A stretch of 16,448 bases of DNA, from contig JBDRGF010000155.1 of NCBI GenBank assembly GCA_043818055.1, positions 1-16,448 of the forward strand, read 5' to 3'. Positions within the stretch are counted from its first letter, which is position 1. Every line of letters starts with the position of its first letter. Shown one piece after another: positions 1,971 through 15,671 of this stretch. This DNA comes from Pseudomonadota bacterium. GTDB lineage: Bacteria; UBA10199; 2-02-FULL-44-16; JBDRGF01. The notes under the pieces were generated by a model, which saw nothing but the letters and a program-made list of their open reading frames with translations, was not told where the DNA came from and did no database searches. The position numbers and the translations under genes were made by a program.

Positions 1971-2151
1971 ATGTGATAAAACAAGGCGAATGGGAAAAAA
2001 AGTCTCTCATTCTAACAACAGGTCTCCCAAGGTCTCTAATGCGAATCTGCAATCTGTTAGAACCAATAAGGGGAAAAAGCTTGTTTGCACAAGATGCATC
2101 AGAAGTGGCAAAGTAATAAAACATGTTGCTACCCGTGCGTCTGTCTCCTGA
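1951..2151 (+). CDS. rpmB: 50S ribosomal protein L28, zinc-binding (C+) form
   Basis: MSRKCSICDK...GKKVSHSNNRS...ANLQ...VCTRCIRSGKV, with two CxxC pairs. SD GGAGG at 1940-1944 supports ATG 1951 over the ORF-track start at 1906. Confidence 0.95.
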   Translation: MSRKCSICDKTRRMGKKVSHSNNRSPKVSNANLQSVRTNKGKKLVCTRCIRSGKVIKHVATRASVS

Positions 2152-4273
2152 CTGATATAATTCCCTTCAGACTCTCTAAAGCATGGGTGATCTTGCGCAA
2201 GTGAGATACATCCTTCACCTCAACTTCGAACTTTCCGTTAGCAGTTCCGTCATCATTCGCATGTACTTCTGCAGATGTGATGTTTCCTTCAGCATCAGAT
2301 ATTGCTTCACTCATAAGGGCCAGCTGTCCTGACTTATTGACGGTGACTACTATGAGGGTAGCTGTTGTGACACGCCCCTCATCGACATCCCATTCCACAT
2401 CTATCTTTCTGGCTGGGTCCATGCCGATCACGCGCGCGCAATCAAAACGATGCACCGTAACACCCTTGCCTCTTGTGACAAAACCTACAATCGCATCCCC
2501 CGGAATTGGCTGACAGCATTTGGCAAAGGAAATCTGCACATCGGTGAGACCGCCCACTCTGACTAATCCCTTGGGGCGCCTAAATTTACTGACGATGCGC
2601 TGTAATACCGATTCCTTCTTCTCTTTAATTTCCTCTTCATCGAAACCAAGCAGGCCGATGATCTTCTTTGTCGAAAGCTTTCCGTATGCTATAGCTGTAA
2701 AAACACCCTCTTCGGAATGATATCCGCTCTTCTTTACAAAATCCCGAAAGATCTCGTTCTTCGCAATCTCTTTATACGTCATCTTGAACTTACTTAATGA
2801 TTTTTCCAGGAGCTCCTTACCCACTGTCGCACTCTGATCGACTTCGAGCTTTCTAAGATGCTGTCTGATCTTGGTCTTCGCCCTGCTCGTCTTGACAAAG
2901 CTCATCCAGTCCTTGTGAGGCGTGCCATGTTTCTGCGTTATCACTTCAACTGTATCTCCGCTTCTAAGCTGATATCTCAGAGGAACTATTTTTCCATTCA
3001 CCTTCGCACCGACACAGGTGTTCCCGACATCAGTATGAATCGAATAAGCAAAATCAAGAGGTGTGCTACCGCGGGGAAGCTCTTTCAAAAGTCCCTTGGG
3101 GGTAAAGACGTAAACATCGTCGGCAAAGAGATCGAGCTTGATCGTATCCATGAACTCCGCAGGATCGGAGAGTTCCTTCTGCCATTCGAGGAGGCGGCGC
3201 AGCCATTTGAACTTCAACTCATCCTTATCTTCAATCTGCCCACCATCCTTGTACTTCCAGTGCGCGGCGATTCCATGCTCGGCGATCACATGCATCTCAT
3301 GTGTTCTTATCTGAAATTCGATCCTCTCACCATGGAGGCCTATTACAGTCGTGTGAAGCGACTGATAGTTATTGGCCTTGGACATCGCTATGTAATCTTT
3401 GAATCTGCCGGGAACCGGGCGCCACAGCGCATGGATGATACCGAGGGCTTCATAACACTTCGGAATATCATCTACTATGAGCCTGAAGGCCACTATGTCG
3501 TGAACTTCATCGAAGGGAATATTCTGCGCCTGCATCTTTCGCCAGACGCTGTAATAATGTTTAAGCCTGCCGTAGAACTTAAATTCAACATTGTGAGATT
3601 TCATCTCCTCTTCGACTATTTTGTGTATCTCCTTTATATATTTCTCGCGAGTGGCTTTGCGCTTCTGACAACCCTCATCTATCTTCTGGTAAATGGTCGG
3701 CTTTAGATGTTTGAATGAGAGATCCTCGAGCTCGATCTTCATCTCCTGAATTCCAAGCCGGTTGGCGATTGGGGCATAGATATCGCGCGTCTCTCTTGCT
3801 GTCGCTATCCTACTCCGCTCGGACATGTACTCAAGCGTCCTCATGTTGTGTAATCTGTCTGCGAGCTTCACGAGGATGACCCTGATATCCTGGGACATCG
3901 CCATGATCATCTTCCGAAAATTCTCGGCCTGTTCTTCCTCTCTCGAGCTGAAATGTATCTTCGAGAGCTTGGTCACGCCATCGACGAGAAGTTTGACCTC
4001 TGTGCCGAAAAGCTGTTCGACCTCCTCGAGGGTCGCGACCGTATCCTCGACTGTATCATGCAAAAGAGCAGTGACGATCGAAGGCACATCGAGCTGCATG
4101 CGTGCCAGAATTGCCGCTACTTCCAGCGGGTGGATCAGATAGGGTTCACCCGATCGACGCGTCTGTCCCTGATGGACCTTGGCCGAAAAAACGTAGGCCT
4201 TCTTGATCTCATCGAGATCGGCTTTTTTGTTGTAGCTGGAGACTATGTCGAGTATTTCACTAAGCCTTATCAT
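2129..4273 (-). CDS. spoT: Bifunctional (p)ppGpp synthetase/hydrolase (long RSH, Rel/SpoT)
   Basis: Intact hydrolase motifs (RRSGEPY, HDTVED, ADRLHNMRT), synthetase motifs (GRLK, YQSLHT, EFQIRT), TGS (VFTPKG...DFAYSIHT), ZFD (CCQPIPGD...HRFDC) and a C-terminal ACT domain. Confidence 0.96.
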   Translation of the reverse strand: MIRLSEILDIVSSYNKKADLDEIKKAYVFSAKVHQGQTRRSGEPYLIHPLEVAAILARMQLDVPSIVTALLHDTVEDTVATLEEVEQLFGTEVKLLVDGVTKLSKIHFSSREEEQAENFRKMIMAMSQDIRVILVKLADRLHNMRTLEYMSERSRIATARETRDIYAPIANRLGIQEMKIELEDLSFKHLKPTIYQKIDEGCQKRKATREKYIKEIHKIVEEEMKSHNVEFKFYGRLKHYYSVWRKMQAQNIPFDEVHDIVAFRLIVDDIPKCYEALGIIHALWRPVPGRFKDYIAMSKANNYQSLHTTVIGLHGERIEFQIRTHEMHVIAEHGIAAHWKYKDGGQIEDKDELKFKWLRRLLEWQKELSDPAEFMDTIKLDLFADDVYVFTPKGLLKELPRGSTPLDFAYSIHTDVGNTCVGAKVNGKIVPLRYQLRSGDTVEVITQKHGTPHKDWMSFVKTSRAKTKIRQHLRKLEVDQSATVGKELLEKSLSKFKMTYKEIAKNEIFRDFVKKSGYHSEEGVFTAIAYGKLSTKKIIGLLGFDEEEIKEKKESVLQRIVSKFRRPKGLVRVGGLTDVQISFAKCCQPIPGDAIVGFVTRGKGVTVHRFDCARVIGMDPARKIDVEWDVDEGRVTTATLIVVTVNKSGQLALMSEAISDAEGNITSAEVHANDDGTANGKFEVEVKDVSHLRKITHALESLKGIISVRRQTHG

Positions 4274-4839
4274 CTTTTATGTGTCCAGTTTTCATCTATG
4301 ATTGCGATGACCTTAGCCACAGCATTTTCAACTTCATCATTGATGACTTTATAATCGTATCTGTCCTGAAATTCCAGCTCATCTTTAGCACTCTTTAATC
4401 TGATTTCCACATCCTTTTTTGAATCGGTATTTCTATCCAATAACCGTCTTTTCAACTCCTCAAAACTTGGAGGCAAAAGAAATATCAAAACGGTCTCAGG
4501 ATACTTCTCCCTGATAGCAAGACCGCCCTGTATATCAACATCTAGTATTAGAGCATCTCCACAAGCCAGGGCAGAATCGATCTGATTCCGTGGCGTTCCT
4601 TTATATTGACCATAGACGAGAGCCCATTCGGCAAAACCGTCATCATCTATCATCTTTTTGAATTGATCGACACTCACGAAGTAATAATCTTTTCCATCAA
4701 CCTCGCCTTTGCGGGGTTCACGCGTCGTGTATGAAATTGAAACTTTGATATCCTGTCGCTCACGCAACAACTGAGATACAACCGTAGATTTTCCGGAACC
4801 GGATGGGGCTGAGATGACAAAAAGTTTACCTTTGTTCAT
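4270..4839 (-). CDS. gmk: Guanylate kinase
   Basis: P-loop SAPSGSGKST, SYTTREPRKGEVDGKDYYFVS, LDVDIQG, FLLPPS. 4-nt ATGA overlap with rel/spoT. Confidence 0.97.
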   Translation of the reverse strand: MNKGKLFVISAPSGSGKSTVVSQLLRERQDIKVSISYTTREPRKGEVDGKDYYFVSVDQFKKMIDDDGFAEWALVYGQYKGTPRNQIDSALACGDALILDVDIQGGLAIREKYPETVLIFLLPPSFEELKRRLLDRNTDSKKDVEIRLKSAKDELEFQDRYDYKVINDEVENAVAKVIAIIDENWTHKR

Positions 4840-4842
4840 ATC

Positions 4843-5685
4843 CTATTCCAGGTTTTGAACTTGTTCTCTTAAGCGTTCAAGCTCCGATTTTGACTCGACA
4901 ACAAGGTGTGAAATCAGAGCTTCACATGCCTTTGAACCGATAGTATTTAATTCTCTGTTCATCTCCTGAAGCAGAAAGTCGAGTTTCCTTCCGACAGGTT
5001 CTTTTAAATTGATTAGGGATGTGTACTGGGAAATGTGGCTCATGAGCCTCTCCAGCTCCTCAGTTATATCCTGTCTGGAGAATTCCTCACAACGATCGGA
5101 TTCCCCAGCCAACTTCGCATTGGCTGCCTTTTTGTATAATATCTTCTGTTTAGACATGCTCGTTTTTCTAATTTTCCTAACCGCTGCTGACAATGTTTTC
5201 AAATGTTTTTTCTGCTCTTTTATTATATATCGTCCCTCTTTCAGGCGCATGCCATCTACGCTCAACAGGGTTTGATCGACAAGCTTTTTGATCTGAGGAA
5301 GCATGGGTGCGAGAGAACCGGAGTTGTCCTCCTTTATTATAAAATCGTCGTAATTGGCCTTCTCCAGAGGATCGTCGAGCGGAGGAAGATCCAGTTCTTT
5401 CCGAAATTTTTTAATCGCTTTTATGTAACGCTGGGCGAGGTCTTTATTCACCGTAAGATCTGGATCTCCAAATACCGGCCTTAGCTCGCGAACAAAAACA
5501 TCTACCCTGCCACGAAAAACCCTCTCCCTGATCCATCCTCTCAGATGGGACTCAAGAGGGCTGAGTGAATTTGAAAGTTTAATATTTACATCGCAATACC
5601 GATGATTGAGGGTTTTTACTTCAACGGATATTCTACCCTTACCGACTACACCACTGCATGATCCATAACCTGTCATAGAACGCAT
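4843..5685 (-). CDS. yicC: YicC/YloC family endoribonuclease
   Basis: N-terminal MRSMTGYG, LNHRY and RGRVD; C-terminal DITEELERL, GRKLDFLLQEMNRELNTIGSK and REQVQNLE. Canonical position upstream of gmk. Confidence 0.94.
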   Translation of the reverse strand: MRSMTGYGSCSGVVGKGRISVEVKTLNHRYCDVNIKLSNSLSPLESHLRGWIRERVFRGRVDVFVRELRPVFGDPDLTVNKDLAQRYIKAIKKFRKELDLPPLDDPLEKANYDDFIIKEDNSGSLAPMLPQIKKLVDQTLLSVDGMRLKEGRYIIKEQKKHLKTLSAAVRKIRKTSMSKQKILYKKAANAKLAGESDRCEEFSRQDITEELERLMSHISQYTSLINLKEPVGRKLDFLLQEMNRELNTIGSKACEALISHLVVESKSELERLREQVQNLE

Positions 5686-5686
5686 A

Positions 5687-6343
5687 TTAATTTCCCTCTC
5701 TCATTAGTTTAGTCTCTCCAATTTCAATCACATCACCTATTTCCAGTATCTTCGATTCAACCTCTTTGCCGTTCACAAAAGTCCCGTTTCTGCTGACAAG
5801 ATCGAGCACACCCACTGTTTCTCCATCATAGAATATCATAACATGAAGGCGCGAAACGTTAAGATCAGTCAAGACAACATCTGACGCCCTTCGAAAACTT
5901 CCAAACTCTTTCTCCTTAGGATCTCTATCCTCACCCTTTTTCATCTTCCTGAACTGTTGCGATATGTAATTGGTGATCAGCCTTTTAGTATTGTCGTCGA
6001 TGGAGAGTGCGAAATCGACGGAGAAAACGCTCGTCTTTTCAGGATCGGAAGATGATCTGCCCATTCCCCTGCATATTCCTGCCTCGACTGAAAAGGTGAG
6101 TCCTTTGTCCGGTCCCTCTATTACTCTAAAAAGAGAGGGTGTTGCCAAAACGCCAACACCCTCTGATGATACATTTCCAAGATCCAAAGCCTCGTCCATA
6201 GTCATTATCGGAACGTTATCCCTGATTGGGAATTTCAACTGACAGCTAGCACACATCAGGCTTCGATCTTCATCAACCAATTGTATAGCTCGCTTACATT
6301 TTGGACAGACTAAAGCTTCAAAGAGCCTCTTCGCCAGAGCCAT
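5687..6343 (-). CDS. Trm112/YcaR-like zinc-ribbon fused to an FHA domain containing a large insertion
   Basis: aa 1-55 LVCPKCK...LMCASCQLKFPIRDNVPIMTMDEA match the Trm112p/YcaR pattern. FHA motifs: G95-R96, DxxVSRxH (160-167), SRNGTFVNG (184-192) and L-x-x-GD-x-I-x-IG. Abuts the skp stop (TAAATG) and the yicC start. Confidence 0.85.
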   Translation of the reverse strand: MALAKRLFEALVCPKCKRAIQLVDEDRSLMCASCQLKFPIRDNVPIMTMDEALDLGNVSSEGVGVLATPSLFRVIEGPDKGLTFSVEAGICRGMGRSSSDPEKTSVFSVDFALSIDDNTKRLITNYISQQFRKMKKGEDRDPKEKEFGSFRRASDVVLTDLNVSRLHVMIFYDGETVGVLDLVSRNGTFVNGKEVESKILEIGDVIEIGETKLMREGN

Positions 6344-6904
6344 TTACTTCTTTCCCTTTTTTGAATTGAAATCCTTGATCACGCGATCAGTCAGATCACT
6401 CCCAGCCGGGGCATAAAGAACTACGTCACGAGAAGTTTCCAGTATCATAGTATAGTTATCCTGGCCGCCAATCCCCTGAACCAAAGCACGTAATCTTTCG
6501 ACGATCCCTTGAGTCAATTCCATCTCCTTCTTAGCAACATCCTGCTGGAATTGTCCCATCTGCTGCTGAACCTCCATGAACTTACGCCTGAATTCCTCTT
6601 CCTTCTCCTTCAAAGCATCGGGAGAGAGCACCAGCCTCTTCTTCTCAAGTTCGGTTTTCATATCCTTGAGTTCCTGTTCATAAGCAGCGAGTTTTTGCTT
6701 TTTTACATTTACTTCTACCTCTAACGCTTTTTTGGCCTTTTTTCCCTCTTCCACTTCATTCAGGGCACGATTGATGTCGACATAGCCAAACTTCATGTCG
6801 GAGCAACAATTGCCAGAGGCCTTCGTCGCCGCCTGAGCATTTGAAACTGAGTAGCCGACCAAGAACATCATGACCACTAACACAGACACTTTAAAAATCT
6901 TCAT
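6344..6904 (-). CDS. skp: OmpH/Skp periplasmic chaperone
   Basis: Signal peptide MKIFKVSVLVVMMFLVGYSVSNAQA, KFGYVDINRAL, long coiled coil and a C-terminal VLYA...DLTDRVIK. Downstream of bamA. SD GGAGG supports ATG 6904 over 6991. Confidence 0.9.
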   Translation of the reverse strand: MKIFKVSVLVVMMFLVGYSVSNAQAATKASGNCCSDMKFGYVDINRALNEVEEGKKAKKALEVEVNVKKQKLAAYEQELKDMKTELEKKRLVLSPDALKEKEEEFRRKFMEVQQQMGQFQQDVAKKEMELTQGIVERLRALVQGIGGQDNYTMILETSRDVVLYAPAGSDLTDRVIKDFNSKKGKK

Positions 6905-7001
6905 ATCTTCCTCCCTGCCATCTAGGCATAAAATTATATTTAGAACCCTATATAGTTGATTTCCTATATTATATTTGAAAGAGCATAACAAGCATTTTTG
7001 T

Positions 7002-9308
7002 TTAAAATAAGCTTCCCATGCCGAAGTTGAATATTACGCTCTTGTCGCTGGGTCCTTTGATAATCGGAATACCCCATTCGAAACGAAGAGGTCCCATAGG
7101 TGAATGCCATCTCAAACCGAAACCATAATCGGCCTTTAGGTTTGTGATGGAGATGTTCTGATTCTCGGCAAAGGCGTTTCCAGCATCGAAGAAGGCTACA
7201 AGTGCGACTCCGCCTTTCGGAAATACGAGATATTCAAATTCGGTCACAAATAGTATCTGTTTATCTCCACCGTAGGTAACATCTTTCTCACCGGAGAAAG
7301 GCGTAGCTGGAAGCCTGATCCTCGGTCCGACCGTGTTCCAGTCGTAACCTCTCATGGAGTTCACACCTCCAAGAAAATAGCGCTCGTAGAGTGGAACGGG
7401 ATCGTTGTTCAAACTCTTGACGTATCCTGACCTTCCATATTGCTTGAATATCAAACTCTTATAGACCGGATAATAGAACTGTCCCAGGACATCAAGCCGA
7501 TAGAAATCGTTGTTGCCACCCAATTTGCTGCCTGAGACTTCGTTTGTTACCTGACCGTAGAACCCTTTTGTCGGCATTATCCTGTTGTCACGCCTGTCGT
7601 ACTGGATATCGAAATTGATTGCGGAGGTGAAGCCCTTCTCCTTCTGTTTCAATCTCTGCGGAATGAATGGGCTTAAGTCGCTCACCTTCACATGCTCAGC
7701 AGTATATCCCAACAGGGCTGTCCAGTACTCAAATATCTTATGACCAAATGTCACACTACCGCCATATGCTTCGCGCTTGTAGTCAGGATAGTGATATGCG
7801 GTACGGTATGCGGAGCCGCCCAGTATCCACTCGGAATCGAGGAAGTAGTTATCCTGAAGGCTTAAAAAGAAATTCTGTCGTTTCTTTGAAATTTCACCTG
7901 AGATCGAGCCGCTTATTCCAAATCCGAAGAAATTCTGTTTCGACACCGATGCGCTGAATATGAAGCTTTCAACCGACGAAAATGCCGCGCTGATATTGAA
8001 GGATCCTGTCGGCCTTTCAGTAACAGTAACATCGAGGTTGACAGTATCATCACTTGTGCCTCTGGGAGTTGCAAAATTGATATCAGAAAAATATCCCAAA
8101 GCGTTGAGCTTTTCGCGGCTCTTTCTCAAACCCTTCAGGCTGTATCTGTCATCTTCATAGACTTTAAGTTCACGACGAATCACTTTATCCCTCGTCGTAG
8201 TGTTTCCTTTAATATTTATCTTTTCAATTGTGATGCGGTCACCCTTCTCTATCACATATGTTACATCGACAGTGAGTTTTTCATCATCCGGCGTCTGGTG
8301 CGGAATGATGTTTGCGAACGCATATCCCTGATCTCCATAGAGCTCGCCTAAATCCTGCAAATCGATGTCGATGTTCATCCTGTTGTAAACATCACCCTCT
8401 TTAGATTTCAAAAGCGATTTCAGTTGATCCTTCGTGGTCAGGACATCCCCTTCGATATTTATTTTGCCAAAATTATATTTCTTTCCTTCATGGATATCGA
8501 ATGTGAGGAAGATGTATCTCTTATCCTTTGAAATATATGTCCTCGGAGGAGAGACGCGCGCTCTATAGTAACCGCTATTAAGATAGAAATACGTCAGCAT
8601 CCCCACATCCACCTTGATCTTATCTTCATCAAAAGAACCCGACTTGGTTAAAAATGAGAAAAAGCCCTTTTTCTTCGTCTTGATCTGATCGCGGAGTTTG
8701 TCGTCACTGAAGACATGGTTTCCAAGAAACATCACCCGCCTTACAAAGGCCTTGAGATTTTCACGGATGCTGAAGACGAGCTTCGCTTCACCCGATTCGT
8801 TGTTGCCGATGTAATAACTTACCTCGACAAGATAGTAACCCTTCTTGATATACGCCTTTTTGATATTATCTATAGCTGTGGCCAGCTCCTTTGAGTTCAA
8901 AGGTTGATAGAGTGTGATATTGACATCCTCTTCGAGCTTATCATCTTTGATCTTTCTGTTTCCTTCGAAATCGACTTCGGAGATCAGCGGCTTTTCAGTA
9001 AATGAATATATCACCTTCACGCCGCCCGCAACCTGAGTGCTCTCAATTCGAATATCCAAAAACTGACCCAGGGCATAGAGTGCCTTCATATCCTCACGAA
9101 CGATTGTAGAGTTTAGCAAGAAACCTGTGCGCGTTTTTATGGTAGCGCTGATCGTCTCTGTCGGCACCCTCTGATTGCCGGTGATTTCAATCTTCTTGAC
9201 CATCGGCGAAAGAGCATGAGCCGATTGCGGCAAGATCAGAAAGAAGAGTGCGAACACAAAAAAGAAGAAACACGATAATGTTTTTTTATTATAAGAACTA
9301 TTATTCAT
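7002..9308 (-). CDS. bamA: Outer membrane protein assembly factor BamA (Omp85); alternative start at 9323
   Basis: Signal peptide ending AHA, repeated POTRA motifs (ITGNQRV, FEGNRKI, FLGNHVF, IKGNTTTRDKVIRRE), SMRGY (VRGF/Y-like loop 6), WHSPMGPLRF and a terminal Phe. Confidence 0.96.
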   Translation of the reverse strand: MNNSSYNKKTLSCFFFFVFALFFLILPQSAHALSPMVKKIEITGNQRVPTETISATIKTRTGFLLNSTIVREDMKALYALGQFLDIRIESTQVAGGVKVIYSFTEKPLISEVDFEGNRKIKDDKLEEDVNITLYQPLNSKELATAIDNIKKAYIKKGYYLVEVSYYIGNNESGEAKLVFSIRENLKAFVRRVMFLGNHVFSDDKLRDQIKTKKKGFFSFLTKSGSFDEDKIKVDVGMLTYFYLNSGYYRARVSPPRTYISKDKRYIFLTFDIHEGKKYNFGKINIEGDVLTTKDQLKSLLKSKEGDVYNRMNIDIDLQDLGELYGDQGYAFANIIPHQTPDDEKLTVDVTYVIEKGDRITIEKINIKGNTTTRDKVIRRELKVYEDDRYSLKGLRKSREKLNALGYFSDINFATPRGTSDDTVNLDVTVTERPTGSFNISAAFSSVESFIFSASVSKQNFFGFGISGSISGEISKKRQNFFLSLQDNYFLDSEWILGGSAYRTAYHYPDYKREAYGGSVTFGHKIFEYWTALLGYTAEHVKVSDLSPFIPQRLKQKEKGFTSAINFDIQYDRRDNRIMPTKGFYGQVTNEVSGSKLGGNNDFYRLDVLGQFYYPVYKSLIFKQYGRSGYVKSLNNDPVPLYERYFLGGVNSMRGYDWNTVGPRIRLPATPFSGEKDVTYGGDKQILFVTEFEYLVFPKGGVALVAFFDAGNAFAENQNISITNLKADYGFGLRWHSPMGPLRFEWGIPIIKGPSDKSVIFNFGMGSLF

Positions 9309-9326
9309 GTATTTTGTCCCCATATC

Positions 9327-9401
9327 CCTCCCCTTTATAAGGGGAGGTTAGGAGGGGTAAGTAACATCTACCTCCCCCACCCCCTCCTTATGAAGGAGGG
9401 G
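9327..9401. repeat. Inverted doublet of GC-rich REP-like palindromes
   Basis: CCTCCCCTT-TAT-AAGGGGAGG (9327-9347) and CCCCTCCTT-ATG-AAGGAGGGG (9381-9401), each a perfect 9-bp stem. Related G-rich tails (GGTTAGGAGGGGTA and, on the reverse strand, GGTGGGGGAGGTA) face each other. Confidence 0.75.
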
Positions 9402-9411
9402 AGTAAAGCTA

Positions 9412-10080
9412 TTACATATCAAGCCTTTTATTTCTCAAATAGTAGAGCTTCGGCAAGCTCTTGAGCAACTCCTGGTTATGACTGACTATCACAAGGGCTG
9501 TCTTGTGCTCCTCATTCAGCCGTCTTAAATATTTTAATATCTGATTCCCCATCTCCTCGTCGAGATTTCCGGTCGGTTCATCTGCCAGAATCATCTCTGG
9601 CCTCATGACCGCGGCCCTGGCTATCGCAACCCTCTGCTGTTCACCGCCTGAAAGGGTCATCGGAAAGTGTTTCACTCTATCTTTCAATCCGACATCGCTC
9701 AAAGCTTCAAGCGCCCTCGATCCTGCCTCTGATCTCTTCATTCCACTGATCAGACATGGCATCATCACATTTTCAAGCGCACTAAATTCCTTCATAAGAT
9801 GATAGAACTGAAAAACAAAGCCAACTTTTTTATTTCTGAATTCTGATAGTTTATCATCCTTAAGCTTACTAAGATCCGTCCCGTCACAGGTGACGTTACC
9901 GTTCGTCGCGCTGTCAAGTCCACCCAAAATATGCAACAGTGTCGATTTTCCACTCCCAGAGACACCACATATACCAACAATTTCAGCATCAGAGAGTTCA
10001 AAATCAAGACCCGATAACACCTCAACAGGTAGAGTTGAGTCGTAATATGTCTTACTGACCTTTCTTGCAATCAATTTCAT
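9412..10080 (-). CDS. lolD: Lipoprotein-releasing ABC transporter ATP-binding protein
   Basis: Walker A GVSGSGKST, GFVFQFYHL, signature LSGGEQQRVAIARA and ILADEPTGNLD. Adjacent to two LolC/E-type permeases. Confidence 0.92.
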   Translation of the reverse strand: MKLIARKVSKTYYDSTLPVEVLSGLDFELSDAEIVGICGVSGSGKSTLLHILGGLDSATNGNVTCDGTDLSKLKDDKLSEFRNKKVGFVFQFYHLMKEFSALENVMMPCLISGMKRSEAGSRALEALSDVGLKDRVKHFPMTLSGGEQQRVAIARAAVMRPEMILADEPTGNLDEEMGNQILKYLRRLNEEHKTALVIVSHNQELLKSLPKLYYLRNKRLDM

Positions 10081-10119
10081 CAGATTTAAACCTCTTTTTT
10101 TAAGTTACAAAACAAACCC

Positions 10120-10266
10120 CTGGATTCCCGCATGTGAGACCGTTGCCAAATTACAATTATAATTTGTAGGGGCAGGTTTTAAACCTGCCCTTGTTCTTTT
10201 TTGGGCGGGTTTGAAACCCACCCCTACAAAATCCCAATATACAATTGGAACTTCTGCGGGAATAAC
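10120..10266. repeat. Nested repeat: split CTGGATTCCCGC...GCGGGAATAAC palindrome enclosing a GTAG-type REP doublet (REPIN-like)
   Basis: Outer arms ATTCCCGCA (10124-10132) and TGCGGGAAT (10255-10263) are a perfect inverted repeat. Inner TTTGTAGGGGCAGGTTTTAAACCTGCCC (10163-10190) and GGGCGGGTTTGAAACCCACCCCTACAAA (10203-10230) are inverted at 24/28 positions. Confidence 0.78.
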
Positions 10267-10282
10267 AAAAGCCTAAATATCC

Positions 10283-11599
10283 TCATTTTTCCTGCAGCGC
10301 CTTGCATACATCTATTCTTCCCTCCTGTTTAGCCGCTGCCCACGAGGTCACAAAACATACCAACAGAGAGAAGAAGGATACTAATAAAATTATCATTGGG
10401 GATATGCTGATAGGCAGCTTATCCAAGAAATAAATTTCTTCATCGAGATGAAAGGGAATCAATCGCTTCATAACGAACGCGATCAAAACACTTAAAGCTG
10501 CACCCAAAGATGTACCGAGAATCCCCACCTTAACACCGCTGAACAAAAACAGATGCCTCACCATATCAGATGGCATACCCAAACTTTTAAAAAGAGCTAT
10601 GTCGTAACGACGATGAAGAATCATCAACATGGTGAGAGCAATTATATTGAACGCGGCTACCACTACCAGAAGTCCCATGATAATAGCAAAAACTTTTTTT
10701 TCCATGCCTATGGCTTCGAAGAGTTCCGAATTTACCTCTTCCCAGGTAAGTGCCCTGTATTCATTATCTGTCGAGCGTTCGAAGTCGAAAGCGATCGCTT
10801 TTGCCTTGTCGGGATCATCGAGCATCACCTCGAGGCCGGTCACATCCCCCTTCGAAATGTCGAAAAGTTTTCTTAAGGCATCCATATCCATCAACACAAA
10901 CTGTGAATCAAAATCGTACAACCCGGTTTCAAAAACACCATCCACATCTATGCTGATCGTTTTTTCTTCGCCCTTCTTCGTAGGAAAGATAAATTTGATC
11001 GTCGATGGGCTCCCAAGTTTTTTGAAGAGCGGCCGCCCTACCATCACGCCAACTTTCAACTGAGAACCGTTATTCGTTTCGAACTTCACAGGCCTCTCTT
11101 TGCGCCATTCATCGAGATCGACTCCCTTAAGTATGGTGCCCACAATTTCACCACCTGCAATCGCGAGCCCCTCACGATAGATAAATGGCGACACACCGAC
11201 GACACCTTTTTTCCTTTGTGAGAGCATTTTTTTCACAATGTCGTTATTGCCAAAGGCCCGATCGATCAGTGGAGCGAGTTTCATATATAATGATAGCAGA
11301 ACTCTGTTGTGATTTTGAAACGCTTTATCCTCGTCATCGTATCTGTATCTATTGATGATTTGCTCAATTTCGCCCTGATTGAAATAGCTCCCCGATCCGA
11401 ATATCGCAATGTGAGCGTTGAAACCGAGAAGCGCCCTCTTGTATTCCTTCTCGAAGCCGGATGAAATACACATGGAGAGTGTGAGCGTTGTGATAGCTAA
11501 AACTATCCCGATGACTGTCAGTATTTTAACAGCCCTGATCGAGCTCGGCGTGAACTTTCGCGTCGTGAATCTCGAAGATATGTATGAAGAGATACCCAT
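10283..11599 (-). CDS. Lipoprotein-releasing ABC transporter permease (LolC/E family), copy 2
   Basis: TM1 followed by SGFEKEYKRALLGFNAHI, GVFETGLYDFDSQF, TWEEVNSELFEAIGMEK, DIALFKSLG and IYFLDKLP. TGATG coupling to the upstream permease; GTG 11602 is an alternative start. Confidence 0.9.
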   Translation of the reverse strand: MGISSYISSRFTTRKFTPSSIRAVKILTVIGIVLAITTLTLSMCISSGFEKEYKRALLGFNAHIAIFGSGSYFNQGEIEQIINRYRYDDEDKAFQNHNRVLLSLYMKLAPLIDRAFGNNDIVKKMLSQRKKGVVGVSPFIYREGLAIAGGEIVGTILKGVDLDEWRKERPVKFETNNGSQLKVGVMVGRPLFKKLGSPSTIKFIFPTKKGEEKTISIDVDGVFETGLYDFDSQFVLMDMDALRKLFDISKGDVTGLEVMLDDPDKAKAIAFDFERSTDNEYRALTWEEVNSELFEAIGMEKKVFAIIMGLLVVVAAFNIIALTMLMILHRRYDIALFKSLGMPSDMVRHLFLFSGVKVGILGTSLGAALSVLIAFVMKRLIPFHLDEEIYFLDKLPISISPMIILLVSFFSLLVCFVTSWAAAKQEGRIDVCKALQEK

Positions 11600-12813
11600 C
11601 ACTCATACCTCAACACTTCTGCTGCTGCCCTTTTACCAACAAGTTGTGTGGGCCAATACGATGAGACAAAAGCTATAAGAACTCCTACTAAACCCAGCAT
11701 CAACGATGTCTGAATTGAAAAATCGACCGGCAGATAATCCAGGTAGTAAGTAGATGGCAGACTGATCGGCCAACGTTTAAGCAATGTGCAGATGACAAAC
11801 GCGGAACAAAGGCCGATCGAACTCCCGATCACGCCGATGATTAGTCCCTGATACAAAAAGATCCTCCTTACCAGATCTTTCTTAAATCCGAGCACCTGCA
11901 TGAGCGCCACATCTTTTTGTCGGGAAGCGGACATCATCAACACGATTCCCATTATGGAGAAGGATGAGATCAATATCACCATGATGAGCACCGCCGTCAT
12001 AGCGTATCTCTCGAGCTTCAATGCTGAGAATAATTTATTATTTCTCTCCTGCCACGTCGAAATTTCAAAACCGGAGAGTTTCTCTGTCAGATGTTTTTTT
12101 ACCTTAAGCGCGTCATTGATGTCGCCTAGCTCAATCAGATATCCCCTTCTCACCTGTTCGCCGAGCAGGCTCACGGCATCCTTCATCGGCAAAAAGATGT
12201 ACTGGTTGTCGTATTGATAGACGCCAGTGCGAAAAAGTCCTGCTACAGCGTATTTTTTCTTATTCGGTATTAGCTCGCCCGTCGGGCTGAGCTTGGCTAG
12301 TGGCGCTATCAGCTCAAAGCTATCCTGAAAATCGGGATGCAAAAGCAAATTTTGGCTGATATCCTTACCTATATACGCCCCTGAAAAATTTTGTTCTTCC
12401 TTAGGTGAATAAAACCAGATCCTCTTTCCCTCGCTGAATTTTTCGAGATCGATCCCCCTCACCTTCACACCCTGAGCCATCACATCTTCATTTAAATTGG
12501 CCTTGATGATAACCTCGCCCTCGACGAAGGGCAAAATCAATTTTGGTGAAAATGGAGCGACGAGCTTATCGACCTCTTCAGATGGGATGGGAGTTTTATC
12601 ACCGGCTGAGGTCTCGATGATGATATGAGAATCGAACCCCAGCAATCTTCTGATAAGCTCCTGATTAAAACCGCGCATGACTGACAGAACTGTAATGAGA
12701 ACCGCCACGCCGATTGCAACTCCGGCGATCGCGTTCAAAGTCAGAAGAGGCACGAATCGCACCCTTCTTCGTTTGAGAAAATACCTATTTGCGATCCAAA
12801 TTGATAAGGACAT
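11599..12813 (-). CDS. Lipoprotein-releasing ABC transporter permease (LolC/E family), copy 1
   Basis: IANRYF, GVAIGVAVLITVLSVMRGF, GLFRTGVYQYD, TWQERNNKLFSALKLER, YYLDYLP and AAEVLRYE. Start set at MSLSIW because the 20 upstream codons in the ORF track come from a heptamer repeat. Confidence 0.92.
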   Translation of the reverse strand: MSLSIWIANRYFLKRRRVRFVPLLTLNAIAGVAIGVAVLITVLSVMRGFNQELIRRLLGFDSHIIIETSAGDKTPIPSEEVDKLVAPFSPKLILPFVEGEVIIKANLNEDVMAQGVKVRGIDLEKFSEGKRIWFYSPKEEQNFSGAYIGKDISQNLLLHPDFQDSFELIAPLAKLSPTGELIPNKKKYAVAGLFRTGVYQYDNQYIFLPMKDAVSLLGEQVRRGYLIELGDINDALKVKKHLTEKLSGFEISTWQERNNKLFSALKLERYAMTAVLIMVILISSFSIMGIVLMMSASRQKDVALMQVLGFKKDLVRRIFLYQGLIIGVIGSSIGLCSAFVICTLLKRWPISLPSTYYLDYLPVDFSIQTSLMLGLVGVLIAFVSSYWPTQLVGKRAAAEVLRYE

Positions 12814-12900
12814 AAAAGCGTGAAGCGTCCACCCGTGAAGCGTGAAACGTAAAAACATTTTTTTGCGCTTCACGCTTCACGAACGACGCTTCACGTTTTT
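12814..12900. repeat. Inverted array of 7-bp tandem repeats (TGAAGCG / CGCTTCA)
   Basis: Left arm AAAAGCG TGAAGCG TCCACCCG TGAAGCG TGAAACG; right arm CGCTTCA CGCTTCA CGAACGA CGCTTCA CGTTTTT. Fills the whole lysS-permease gap and can fold into a long hairpin. Confidence 0.85.
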
Positions 12901-14388
12901 TCATCCTTGAGTTCTTAATTGTGGGAAGAGAATTACATCGCGAATAGATGCGGAATTTGTTAGTAACATCACCAGGCGATCAATCCCCACTCCCTCACCT
13001 GCGGCAGGCGGCATGCCATATTCGAGCGCCCTGATATAATCGGAATCGAAATGCATCGCCTCGTCATCACCCTTATTGAGCGCTTCCACCTGCTTTTTAA
13101 AACGATCCGCCTGATCATCGGGGTCGTTGAGTTCTGAAAAGGCATTTGCCATCTCACGACCGTAGATGAAGAGCTCGAACCTGTCGGTCACCGAAGGATC
13201 CTCCTCGTTTCGACGCGATAGAGGTGAAACTTCAACCGGGTATTGAGTGATAAAAGTCGGCTGAATCAGTTTCGGCTCCACAAGTATCTCAAATATTTCA
13301 GTCAAAATCGCGGCTAGCCCCTCCTTCTCGCTCTTGAGCTTATCTCCAAGACCCTTGGCAAATTTAAGAGCCTCATCCCTCGATTCCAGAACTTTTTTAT
13401 CGACCCCGCCTATTTCAACCAGGGAGTCCTTCAACGTGTATCGTTTGAATGGAGAGCCGAAATCGATCTCGGTCCCCTGATAATCAAATTTCTCCGCTCC
13501 CAGCACTTTTTTCGCAACGGTCGAAAACATCTCTTCGGTAAACTTCATCAGATCTTCGTACGTGGCATAACTCATGTAGAATTCCATCATCGTGAACTCA
13601 GGGTTGTGCTGGATCGAAATCCCCTCATTTCTGAAGTTACGATTGATCTCGAAGACCCGCTCCAACCCACCGACGACCAGGCGTTTGAGATATAGCTCAG
13701 GAGCCACGCGCATGTAGAGATCCATATGAAGGGTATTGTGATGTGTGACGAATGGCTTGGCCGTAGCTCCTCCCGGAATGGGATGCATCATCGGCGTTTC
13801 GACCTCCAAAAAGTCCTTTTCCAACATGAAATTTCGGATCTCCCTGATTATCAACGATCGCTTTACGAAGGTCTCCTTGACTGCGTCATTGACGATCAGA
13901 TCGACATATCTCTGCCTGTATCTGGTCTCGACATCTGTCAGACCGTGCCACTTTTCAGGTAGCGGTCTTAGAGACTTTGTCGTCAAAAGGATCTTGGCTG
14001 CATTGAGGGTCAATTCATCGGTCTTCGTCCTAAAAAGGTTCCCTTCTGCGTACACAAAATCACCTACATCGAGTTTCTTGTAGAGCTCAAACTGTTCATC
14101 TCCAAGTCGTTGTTTTTGAATAAATATTTGAACTTTACCGGTATAATCCTTCACCTGAAGAAATGCGGCTTTTCCAAACGAGCGGATCGCCATGATCCTG
14201 CCTGAGACTGAAAATGTTTTATCAAGCGTTTCGAGCTTTTCCTTGTCCCATGACTCATATTCTTTCAGAATTTCAGCAGCATTATTTTTAGGAGAGATGC
14301 CATTTGGAAACGGATTGATCCCCTGAGATTTTAACGCCTCAACCTTCTCACGCCTGGCCTGAATATATTGATTTTCACTCTCGCTCAT
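12901..14388 (-). CDS. lysS: Lysine--tRNA ligase, class II
   Basis: OB-fold (SGRIMAIRSFGKAAF), PLPEKWHGLTDVETRYRQRYVDL, FLEVETPMM, FRNEGISIQHNPEFT and motif 3 GEGVGIDRLVMLLT. SD GGAGG upstream. Confidence 0.98.
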   Translation of the reverse strand: MSESENQYIQARREKVEALKSQGINPFPNGISPKNNAAEILKEYESWDKEKLETLDKTFSVSGRIMAIRSFGKAAFLQVKDYTGKVQIFIQKQRLGDEQFELYKKLDVGDFVYAEGNLFRTKTDELTLNAAKILLTTKSLRPLPEKWHGLTDVETRYRQRYVDLIVNDAVKETFVKRSLIIREIRNFMLEKDFLEVETPMMHPIPGGATAKPFVTHHNTLHMDLYMRVAPELYLKRLVVGGLERVFEINRNFRNEGISIQHNPEFTMMEFYMSYATYEDLMKFTEEMFSTVAKKVLGAEKFDYQGTEIDFGSPFKRYTLKDSLVEIGGVDKKVLESRDEALKFAKGLGDKLKSEKEGLAAILTEIFEILVEPKLIQPTFITQYPVEVSPLSRRNEEDPSVTDRFELFIYGREMANAFSELNDPDDQADRFKKQVEALNKGDDEAMHFDSDYIRALEYGMPPAAGEGVGIDRLVMLLTNSASIRDVILFPQLRTQG

Positions 14389-14546: not shown

Positions 14547-15671
14547 CTATCTCTTTGCAACTGCTCTTACAATTTTTGTCTTGGTTTTGACATCGATAGA
14601 GAGAGGATGATTGTAAATCCTAAACGGTGCTAGGCTAAACTGTATGCGTGTAATGTTTAAATTTCTCTTTGCAGTAACCTCTGTTCTGACTAAAAAATGA
14701 AATGTAACAGGTCTATGTCGAAGGCCAGGCTCATTCAGATTGGCAAAGGGCAATACGCATAATTTGTGTAATCTGGCCGCGTTGTTTTTTATGATAGGGT
14801 GTGAGTTCATCCTTCGAAATCCTCTATGAAAAACTAATTTGGTCTTCAGTTGATGTTTTACATGTCTTCCCACGCGTCTTATTTTTATTCTAATATATAC
14901 ATATCCAACCCAATGCATTCCTAATACGATGTGTTTGGCTAAGTGTGTCTTGACATGAAGTGCCATTCGTCTGGATAAACAACTCTTCATATTTCTCTCA
15001 AGCGCAACAATGTAACTTATGCATGCTGATGTGGTACAAATTTTACTGGGATTGAAAGATCTCTTTGAAAATCCGCTCAGTCTTTGTCTTTCCTCTTGTT
15101 CGTATTCTCTTCTTGTTTTAAACAGCTTTAATTTAAAACCTCTCAGTTTGAAGAAGTTTTCTCTCTTCTCTTTCAAATGATCCTGGAAGAGTTTTTCTCC
15201 ATCAATTCTAAACGTTATCTTTAGTTTTAGTCGATTCAAATCATTTATTGTGGGAAATAGATTGATTAGGCGCGAGAGCCTTCTTGGCTTCATTCTCTTC
15301 ATCCGAGGACGCGCTATCTTTGCCCGTTTTTTCTCTTTAACGGGCGAAGAATGGGGGTAGTCTGGAATAGGACAAGGCTTTTTTTTAACTCTACTCTTAC
15401 TGCATTTACAATATCGAAAAAATGATGAGAGAAAATTCTTTAGGTGGGTCAAGGAGTGAAAGTTCTGGAGCCTAATTTCATTAGGGGTGAGTCTCGCGAG
15501 TGATTCCTGAACCCTAGCTCTCTGAAATTCTTGCTTGGAGATGCAACTATCCGATCCTGCAATCCTTCTCAAGCGCTTGAGATTTAATTCAACTCTCTGA
15601 TCGTGTTCTTTATAACCGCATTTTAAGGATTTTAATATGAAGGGAATACAGGTTTTTTTCAACTTTACCAC
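14547..15671 (-). CDS. Hypothetical, highly basic protein (374 aa)
   Basis: Long ORF in AT-richer DNA; GTG start with AGGAGG SD (15677-15682). By hand count about 90 K+R versus about 23 D+E, and 10 Cys. No family recognised. Confidence 0.75.
   Translation of the reverse strand: MVKLKKTCIPFILKSLKCGYKEHDQRVELNLKRLRRIAGSDSCISKQEFQRARVQESLARLTPNEIRLQNFHSLTHLKNFLSSFFRYCKCSKSRVKKKPCPIPDYPHSSPVKEKKRAKIARPRMKRMKPRRLSRLINLFPTINDLNRLKLKITFRIDGEKLFQDHLKEKRENFFKLRGFKLKLFKTRREYEQEERQRLSGFSKRSFNPSKICTTSACISYIVALERNMKSCLSRRMALHVKTHLAKHIVLGMHWVGYVYIRIKIRRVGRHVKHQLKTKLVFHRGFRRMNSHPIIKNNAARLHKLCVLPFANLNEPGLRHRPVTFHFLVRTEVTAKRNLNITRIQFSLAPFRIYNHPLSIDVKTKTKIVRAVAKR

Follow-up and report, generated by a model that had tools for sequence, protein, structure and literature searches.

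A Trm112-FHA fusion protein of the UBA10199 phylum: a possible phosphothreonine self-switch on a candidate methyltransferase-binding module in an apparently LPS-less lineage

The function of bacterial Trm112/YcaR proteins is described as an open question in the accessible part of PMC5372719, which reports a beta3-beta4 zipper held by main-chain bonds for Trm112-methyltransferase complexes, treats bacterial PrmC as active alone and, within that part, mentions Trm112 fusions only to methyltransferases. One validated bacterial partner is UbiE, a methyltransferase that E. coli YcaR binds by co-immunoprecipitation (excerpt of PMC11445079). FHA domains, in turn, may be governed by a phospho-ligand carried on the same protein: GarA has its Thr motif, ETTS, in an N-terminal tail (available part of PMC12321487), and in DgcB (tail-FHA-GGDEF) a self phospho-ligand controls the attached module, the pattern common to DgcB, GarA and OdhI being Glu at -2, Ser at +1 and hydrophobic residues at +2 and +3 (PMC6733907, as far as accessible). 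Both kinds of module are joined in a single protein of the UBA10199 phylum, and the features of its locus within the window (i.e., the whole stretch of 16,448 nucleotides that was analysed) are the following.

2129..4839, minus strand: gmk (4270-4839) and rel (2129-4273), from Pfam and synteny
4843..5685, minus strand: yicC endoribonuclease gene, downstream neighbour (TIGR00255)
5687..6343, minus strand: Trm112-FHA fusion gene (P0001), 218 aa, with an orthologue in 87/93 genomes of the phylum
6173..6343, minus strand: Trm112/YcaR zinc knuckle, aa 1-57 (C13, C16, C31, C34), from Pfam, PDB matches and the predicted interface
6146..6172, minus strand: linker, aa 58-66, variable and of low confidence (pLDDT <50 at 57-65; poor conservation)
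5690..6145, minus strand: FHA domain, aa 67-218, interrupted by an insert (fold alignment to GarA; Foldseek)
6056..6061, minus strand: G95-R96, phosphate-binding GR motif (R96 in 103/103)
5891..6055, minus strand: insert of ~55 aa in the beta3-beta4 loop, aa 97-151, made up of Thr loop, helix 117-136 and variable loop
6023..6043, minus strand: P101-E-K-T104-S-V-F107, candidate self phospho-ligand (T104 codon 6032-6034)
5843..5854, minus strand: S164-R-L-H167 FHA motif (S164 and H167 in 103/103)
5780..5788, minus strand: N186-G-T188 FHA motif (N in 100/103, G in 103/103, T in 103/103)
6343..6344, no strand: skp/fusion junction, putative site of a lost lipid A/inner-core gene block (gene order in L118, L119, L120 and L125, with absence searches)
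6344..6991, minus strand: skp (OmpH), upstream neighbour (PF03938)
7002..14388, minus strand: lysS-lolE-lolE-lolD-bamA, kept from the front part of the ancestral envelope operon (Pfam, synteny)

The fusion is real and lies on the minus strand (5687-6343), the plus-strand reading being full of stops. Pfam places Trm112p (PF03966) at aa 5-42 with 30.5 bits against a gathering cut-off of 22 and FHA (PF00498) at aa 152-209 with 52.9 bits against 20.7, which bears out the zinc ribbon joined to an FHA domain that the preliminary description had read from the letters alone; its numbering of R96 and S164, its intact pThr-binding motifs (R96, S164, H167 and G187 in 103/103 aligned sequences, N186 in 100/103) and its abutting neighbours (0 nt to skp, 1 nt to yicC) are also correct. 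Fold searches were run with aa 65-218, the Trm112 part being judged by sequence: among PDB entries, seven small solved proteins of UPF0434/Trm112 type match aa 1-57 (E 1.6e-8 to 7.6e-5), and the knuckle cysteines, set in two CxxC-type motifs, are kept (C13 in 91/91, C16 in 89/91, C31 in 93/93 and C34 in 91/93). At 218 aa rather than the ~60 aa of a stand-alone protein, the fusion misses the cut-off of the YcaR equivalog NF008806 (29.5 vs 126 bits), below which a stand-alone Trm112 protein of Desulfobacterota type also falls, at 38.5 bits. An assembly artefact, the doubt that had been raised beforehand, was ruled out: both Pfam domains occur in 34 of 42 protein matches, the gene is full-length in one frame in 79/93 genomes, and one metatranscriptome contig (5646-6196), which by itself does not show transcription, spans the inter-domain linker; no joints or indels are listed in four sequencing runs, those with small shares having been left out.

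No paper describing the Trm112 + FHA architecture was found in a literature search that left most subscription journals and supplements outside, and the papers on Trm112 with forkhead were all eukaryotic, judged by title; automatic annotations already list both domains in the fusion proteins. Among 120 listed of 134 longer fused forms (402-2000 aa) PF03966 was found in none, a weak result with just 7994 candidates scored. Sulfolobus ArnA is alike in having an N-terminal zinc-binding domain and a C-terminal FHA domain (PMC6509490, in its available part). The actinobacterial zinc-ribbon + FHA clusters of the Atlas carry Zn_Ribbon_1 (PF13240) in place of Trm112p; the alignment with them spans only ~100 FHA residues and leaves out the insert.

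A profile search (E at most 5.4e-39) recovered an orthologue of the fusion in 87 of the 93 UBA10199-phylum genomes, full-length in one frame in 79, and the six genomes without one are 60-83% complete. PF03966 scores above its cut-off in 79/93 genomes. Among the eight partial cases, the Trm112 domain is genuinely missing in two (G030 and G071), one (G063) is in two frames, one (G090) ends at a contig edge and four (G017, G042, G053 and G072) have coordinates that suggest a broken contig. The two-frame gene (L284) is split inside the insert in a single-contig genome, through either a sequencing error or a real split. In family f17 the fused Trm112 has diverged past Pfam detection (0/5). In G090 and G091 it is the beta4 strand of the fused Trm112 that has diverged; at their loci (L283 and L282), as in L220, the fusion is immediately preceded by an extra stand-alone trm112. 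Synteny in relatives, suggested earlier as a check, proved near-invariant wherever enough flank was present, with skp upstream in 33/33 genome and 14/14 metagenome loci (a small trm112 sits between skp and the fusion in L050 and L220) and yicC downstream in 33/34 and 12/12, respectively. In a tree of 68 rows, the outgroup branches of which are long, FHA domains with the insert form one clade (100/99), and the fused or at-locus forms a subclade (98/91) holding both Trm112-less genes, a topology consistent with a single fusion followed by later Trm112 loss. Both Trm112-less FHA genes keep their Thr. Separate proteins of 317-366 aa, with an N-terminal Trm112 domain and a rest that reads by eye as methyltransferase-like, are present in G030 (L290), G070 (L291) and G018 (L292), the first being one of the genomes without Trm112 in the FHA gene.

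The structural FHA domain comprises aa 67-218, and it is because the ~55-aa insert parts GR from SRxH that the Pfam match starts only at aa 152 (the distance from R96 to D155 has a median of 57 in fused proteins). In the AlphaFold model of the fusion (mean pLDDT 80, pTM 0.62) this domain superposes on GarA 6i2q_B with a VIA Z of 13.4 and an rmsd of 1.6 Å (96/97 residues aligned, model range 67-217), and across GarA, OdhI, DgcB and other FHAs ~96 residues are matched at Z 12.6-13.6 and rmsd 1.5-1.9 Å (best Z 13.6: 1.5 Å over 97; DgcB 12.6-12.7). The insert consists of a low-confidence loop (102-111), the helix 117-136 and a variable loop, and taken alone (aa 88-134) it had no match among PDB sequences at E 10. 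L115, D116 and Y126 of the insert are conserved as well, and a second Arg, R152, is invariant. Thr is found at R+8 (Thr104 in the window protein) in 122 of 137 fused proteins and within R+7..R+11 in 134, such a Thr being followed by a hydrophobic residue at +3 in 124; the stand-alone relatives have Thr at R+7 with hydrophobic +3 in 25/25, all counts being drawn from 191 scored sequences after five more with non-matching patterns were dropped. The other 13 of the 137 lack this combination and include a divergent group without the Thr, and positions -2 (N/E) and +1 (A/T/Q/S) vary across the fused family. The Thr loop is flexible (pLDDT <50) in both AlphaFold models, i.e., those of the fusion and of a stand-alone relative. 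The sequence marks of a self-ligand FHA switch (a conserved Thr, hydrophobic +2/+3 and a flexible segment of the same chain) are present in 124/137 and 25/25 proteins.

The actinobacterial GarA and OdhI are the top PDB sequence matches, are among the closest folds and have a similar Thr motif, whereas that of the fusion lies inside the FHA beta3-beta4 loop, eight residues past R96, and not in an N-terminal tail; the NCBIfam OdhI model scores 41.5 bits against a cut-off of 200, and nothing in the fusion gives evidence of 2-oxoglutarate dehydrogenase binding. The likeness to Bdellovibrio DgcB extends to the motif, its E12-K13-pT14-S15-I16-V17 (PMC6733907, accessible part) being near-identical to E102-K-T104-S-V-F, which also fits the common DgcB/GarA/OdhI pattern, but the fusion has no GGDEF by Pfam, its attached module is a protein-binding zinc knuckle and its motif is internal. 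We take the protein to be neither YcaR proper nor GarA/OdhI or DgcB, and by analogy it likely works like the GarA/OdhI/DgcB switches. On these grounds Thr104 is somewhat probably a phosphorylated self-ligand of the FHA domain, and the earlier interpretation is incomplete, since the likely ligand is the protein's own inserted Thr104. Binding in cis may be strained because Thr104 stands just eight residues past R96. Kinases are plentiful in the genome: its 2.9 Mb give 28 Pkinase matches (26 above cut-off on their own), along with 15 matches to FHA. Some of the kinases occur in adjacent pairs (C2, C42, C64, C99, C104 and C147), and near 5788-7871 of G000:C88 (L096, L089) there is a DgcB-like FHA protein with a GGDEF-like C-terminus (by eye, GGEEF) and a Thr-containing N-terminal tail, close to a Ser/Thr kinase.

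The same insert characterises a stand-alone family of ~145-150 aa, first seen in the ESM Atlas and recovered as P0381-P0404, which shares with the fusion the split FHA, C-x3-GR, the Thr loop, the insert helix and the clade and differs in having no Trm112 domain and another neighbourhood. Where named, its members are labelled 'Myxococcota bacterium' (NCBI), and their records hold no functional name; in L200, L202 and L204 the gene stands tail-to-tail with a DUF4388 gene. The insert-FHA was found in 0/201 core Myxococcota genomes at E 1e-25, a search with at most 19 candidates scored per listed genome and no positive control, and of five Desulfobacterota-type genomes two gave matches, which were to halves of ordinary FHA domains only.

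As a partner for the zinc knuckle we consider a 258-aa methyltransferase-fold protein encoded on the minus strand of another contig (G000:C58:916-1689), picked from 21 Methyltransf_11 matches in the same genome, 17 of which were scanned; its spread alone was followed. Its gene lies in a cluster of pepA / methyltransferase / RidA-like / response-regulator genes, the names pepA and RidA-like being a reading of translations, not a family scan. Methyltransf_11 matches 28 of 31 C58-type members, and their SAM motif is variable. The ESMFold2 complex of aa 1-57 with the C58 protein scored 0.80, compared with 0.00 for the best of three controls, all of them unrelated proteins and none drawn from the ~20 further methyltransferases that the genome encodes; at least 94% of contacts are shared between runs, and the partner has a pLDDT of at least 87. 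The score mark is reached by 116/157 solved complexes and 2/215 mismatched pairs, counts that hold roughly with own alignments. In the predicted interface Trm112 aa 44-48 zip onto beta3 of the methyltransferase (aa 122-124), the same beta4(Trm112)-beta3(MTase) arrangement as in eukaryotic and archaeal Trm112 complexes, from which the fusion would differ in its candidate partner, a member of Methyltransf_11 that is uncharacterised and whose SAM motif varies. As the zipper rests on main-chain bonds, any class I methyltransferase might pass, and the complex score may reflect likeness to solved Trm112-methyltransferase complexes, of which we take 6f5z to be an archaeal one.

By a one-protein search, the C58-type methyltransferase is present in 43 of 65 genomes that are at least 90% complete. 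A profile re-test took in 15 of the 22 misses and gave a long match in 12 (E 2e-19 to 1e-54), ten of these with the RidA-like neighbour; in the remaining three (G030, G071 and G081) it returned generic matches only. Two of them, G030 and G071 (92% and 95% complete), are the very genomes without a Trm112 domain in the FHA gene, and the third, G081 (96% complete), has a full fusion and is either a counter-example or an assembly gap. The co-distribution gives a Fisher p of 0.002, which rises to 0.035 when both losses are treated as a single event, in a test that is partly post hoc (it was run after the misses had been seen), treats kin that are not independent, rests its co-loss on two genomes and counts G072 as fused although its Trm112 part was not found. 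The Trm112 domain probably binds a class I methyltransferase, and that this would be the C58-type protein is somewhat probable. UbiE/MenG was rejected as the partner, none scoring above cut-off in the genome (best 64.6 vs 158 bits, the best match being ArsM), a difference from the E. coli YcaR-UbiE pair. Another reading would have Thr104 as a structural residue that packs the insert and Trm112 bound to a different methyltransferase, e.g., PrmC, or to none. Conservation of other insert residues (L115, D116 and Y126), the presence of PrmC in the genome and the f17 proteins, with their fused Trm112 below Pfam detection, can be cited for it; yet the Thr persists in both lineages although it sits where the two models are least confident and length varies most, bacterial PrmC acts alone (PMC5372719, accessible part) and two re-tested f17 genomes still have the C58-type methyltransferase, and we consider this reading very improbable.

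The neighbourhood of the gene appears to be inherited. Trm112p is present, mostly as short open frames, in 40 of 41 sampled genomes of the phylum of a Syntrophobacterales MAG, which is taken to be Desulfobacterota. Twenty loci of this type were read, selected so that contigs were long and frames short; lpxK was near the stand-alone trm112 in 14 of them and yicC downstream of it in two. The gene order bamA-skp-lipid A block-trm112 occurs in L118, L119, L120 and L125, and in L132 without a skp call; the block is fullest in L118 and L119, which are close kin (lpxD-fabZ-lpxA-lpxI-dehydrogenase-lpxB-msbA-waaA-lpxK-lpxL-gmhB). In the UBA10199 phylum, searches in which control genomes were positive found LpxC in 0/93 genomes, LpxK above cut-off in 0/93 (best noted: 19 bits in G015), LpxB above cut-off in 1/93 (23.2 bits, weak; 20-23 bits in three genomes), the Kdo transferase domain in 0/65 and LptF/G in 1/52 (G024, 27.9 bits, at the cut-off); the weak LpxK, LpxB and LptF/G matches were not counted as orthologues. 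The genome of the window gave no match for LptD, the KdsB family, LpxA, LpxI, LpxL, FabZ or HldE; it does encode a GmhB-like protein and, at 32% identity, an ABC transporter resembling MsbA. FabZ was absent from it by tblastn with one query, and fatty-acid synthesis may be reduced. The loci read keep bamA, skp and lolDE (6344-14388 in the window), lipid A, Kdo transferase and LptF/G genes not being found bar three weak matches, and the phylum is apparently an LPS-less diderm. Judged by title, none of the listed papers on UBA10199 deals with the fusion protein or the envelope, and supplements of envelope surveys may already list the phylum as LPS-less.

A deletion of the genes that once separated skp from trm112 is highly probable and would explain the contact with skp. 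Given such a deletion, co-location with envelope genes is no evidence of shared function, and retention of YcaR argues for a job independent of lipid A. The fusion resembles YcaR/UPF0434 (PF03966) in its zinc-knuckle sequence, in its place, since in Desulfobacterota-type genomes trm112 closes the lipid A operon, and in predicted class I methyltransferase binding; it differs in being joined to FHA instead of standing alone, and in having been kept although lipid A genes are not found. The preliminary description had proposed an adaptor placing a Trm112 partner under Ser/Thr kinase control, co-expressed with envelope biogenesis, YicC and the stringent-response enzyme. Its adaptor part stands, with a Trm112-type module, an intact FHA, a kinase-rich genome and a predicted methyltransferase partner; the implied functional tie to envelope biogenesis, YicC and Rel is unsupported, as skp contact is best explained by the disappearance of the lipid A genes and the gene of the candidate partner lies on a different contig. 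An FHA domain that reads pThr on other proteins (kinases, Rel, YicC or envelope factors), tying the Trm112 partner to envelope or stringent control and leaving Thr104 secondary, would fit the near-invariant, tightly spaced synteny with skp and yicC-gmk-rel, the 28 kinase and 15 FHA matches and the invariant R152, which could extend the binding surface. It is nonetheless improbable, for the neighbourhood is inherited, trm112 being already in the operon as a stand-alone gene in Desulfobacterota-type genomes, and the stand-alone insert-FHA keeps its Thr loop in places away from skp and yicC-gmk-rel genes. A promoter scan of 4200-7600 gave nothing usable (5 vs 5.3 in shuffles; terminators 5 vs 2.6 +/- 1.4). 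The small genes rpoZ and DUF370 belong to the yicC-gmk-rel operon in other bacteria, and the run at 4270-4843 has no space for them. At 14547-15671 (minus strand) there is a basic ORF of 374 aa, possibly not a gene, with no Pfam or NCBIfam match and none in 37 related loci.

The best explanation, to which we give about an even chance, is that the protein is a methyltransferase-activator module under a self-phosphothreonine switch. In this mechanism the Trm112 knuckle would bind, and likely stabilise or activate, a lineage-specific class I methyltransferase-fold protein; a Ser/Thr kinase would phosphorylate the inserted Thr104; pThr104 would shut the pocket of the FHA domain, in cis or in trans, in the manner of GarA/OdhI and DgcB, so turning the interactions of the protein on or off; and this state would control access to, or localisation of, the Trm112-methyltransferase complex. 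Historically, ycaR/trm112 would have stood at the end of a skp-lpx operon, the lpx block would have been deleted and a pre-existing insert-type FHA fused onto ycaR. The regulatory coupling is the weakest step, because the FHA module also occurs on its own, at the locus itself in G030 and G071 and elsewhere in the stand-alone family, and control of the methyltransferase complex by the FHA switch is a tentative proposal that we rate below even. The two modules could instead have been joined by an accident of gene order, Trm112 chaperoning its methyltransferase and the insert-FHA self-switch acting, uncoupled, on another target. The stand-alone family in another lineage and neighbourhood, the Trm112-less FHA genes that persist at the locus with their Thr, the variable linker with the pTM of 0.62 and the extra trm112 just upstream in G090, G091 and L220 all favour such an uncoupled fusion; against it, full-length retention in 79/93 genomes across the phylum suggests selection on the joined form, and we regard it as unlikely. 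Returning to the self-switch, the complete account, i.e., a phylum that dropped LPS, kept an orphan ycaR and gates a Trm112-methyltransferase complex through a new FHA subtype with a built-in phospho-ligand, is doubtful as a whole.

The UBA10199 lineage separates YcaR from lipid A synthesis, in that the domain is kept and lpx genes are not found, and the evolution of the outer membrane is concerned too, as the phylum has Bam and Lol genes while lipid A and Lpt genes are not detectable in it. The C58 protein is a specific candidate for a Trm112 partner, backed by structure prediction and the co-loss pattern, and the internal Thr loop, if true, would give the self-switch known from GarA and DgcB a new topology. 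Should the mechanism hold, it would provide kinase control of a Trm112 activator, together with a named bacterial Trm112 partner that is lost along with the domain.
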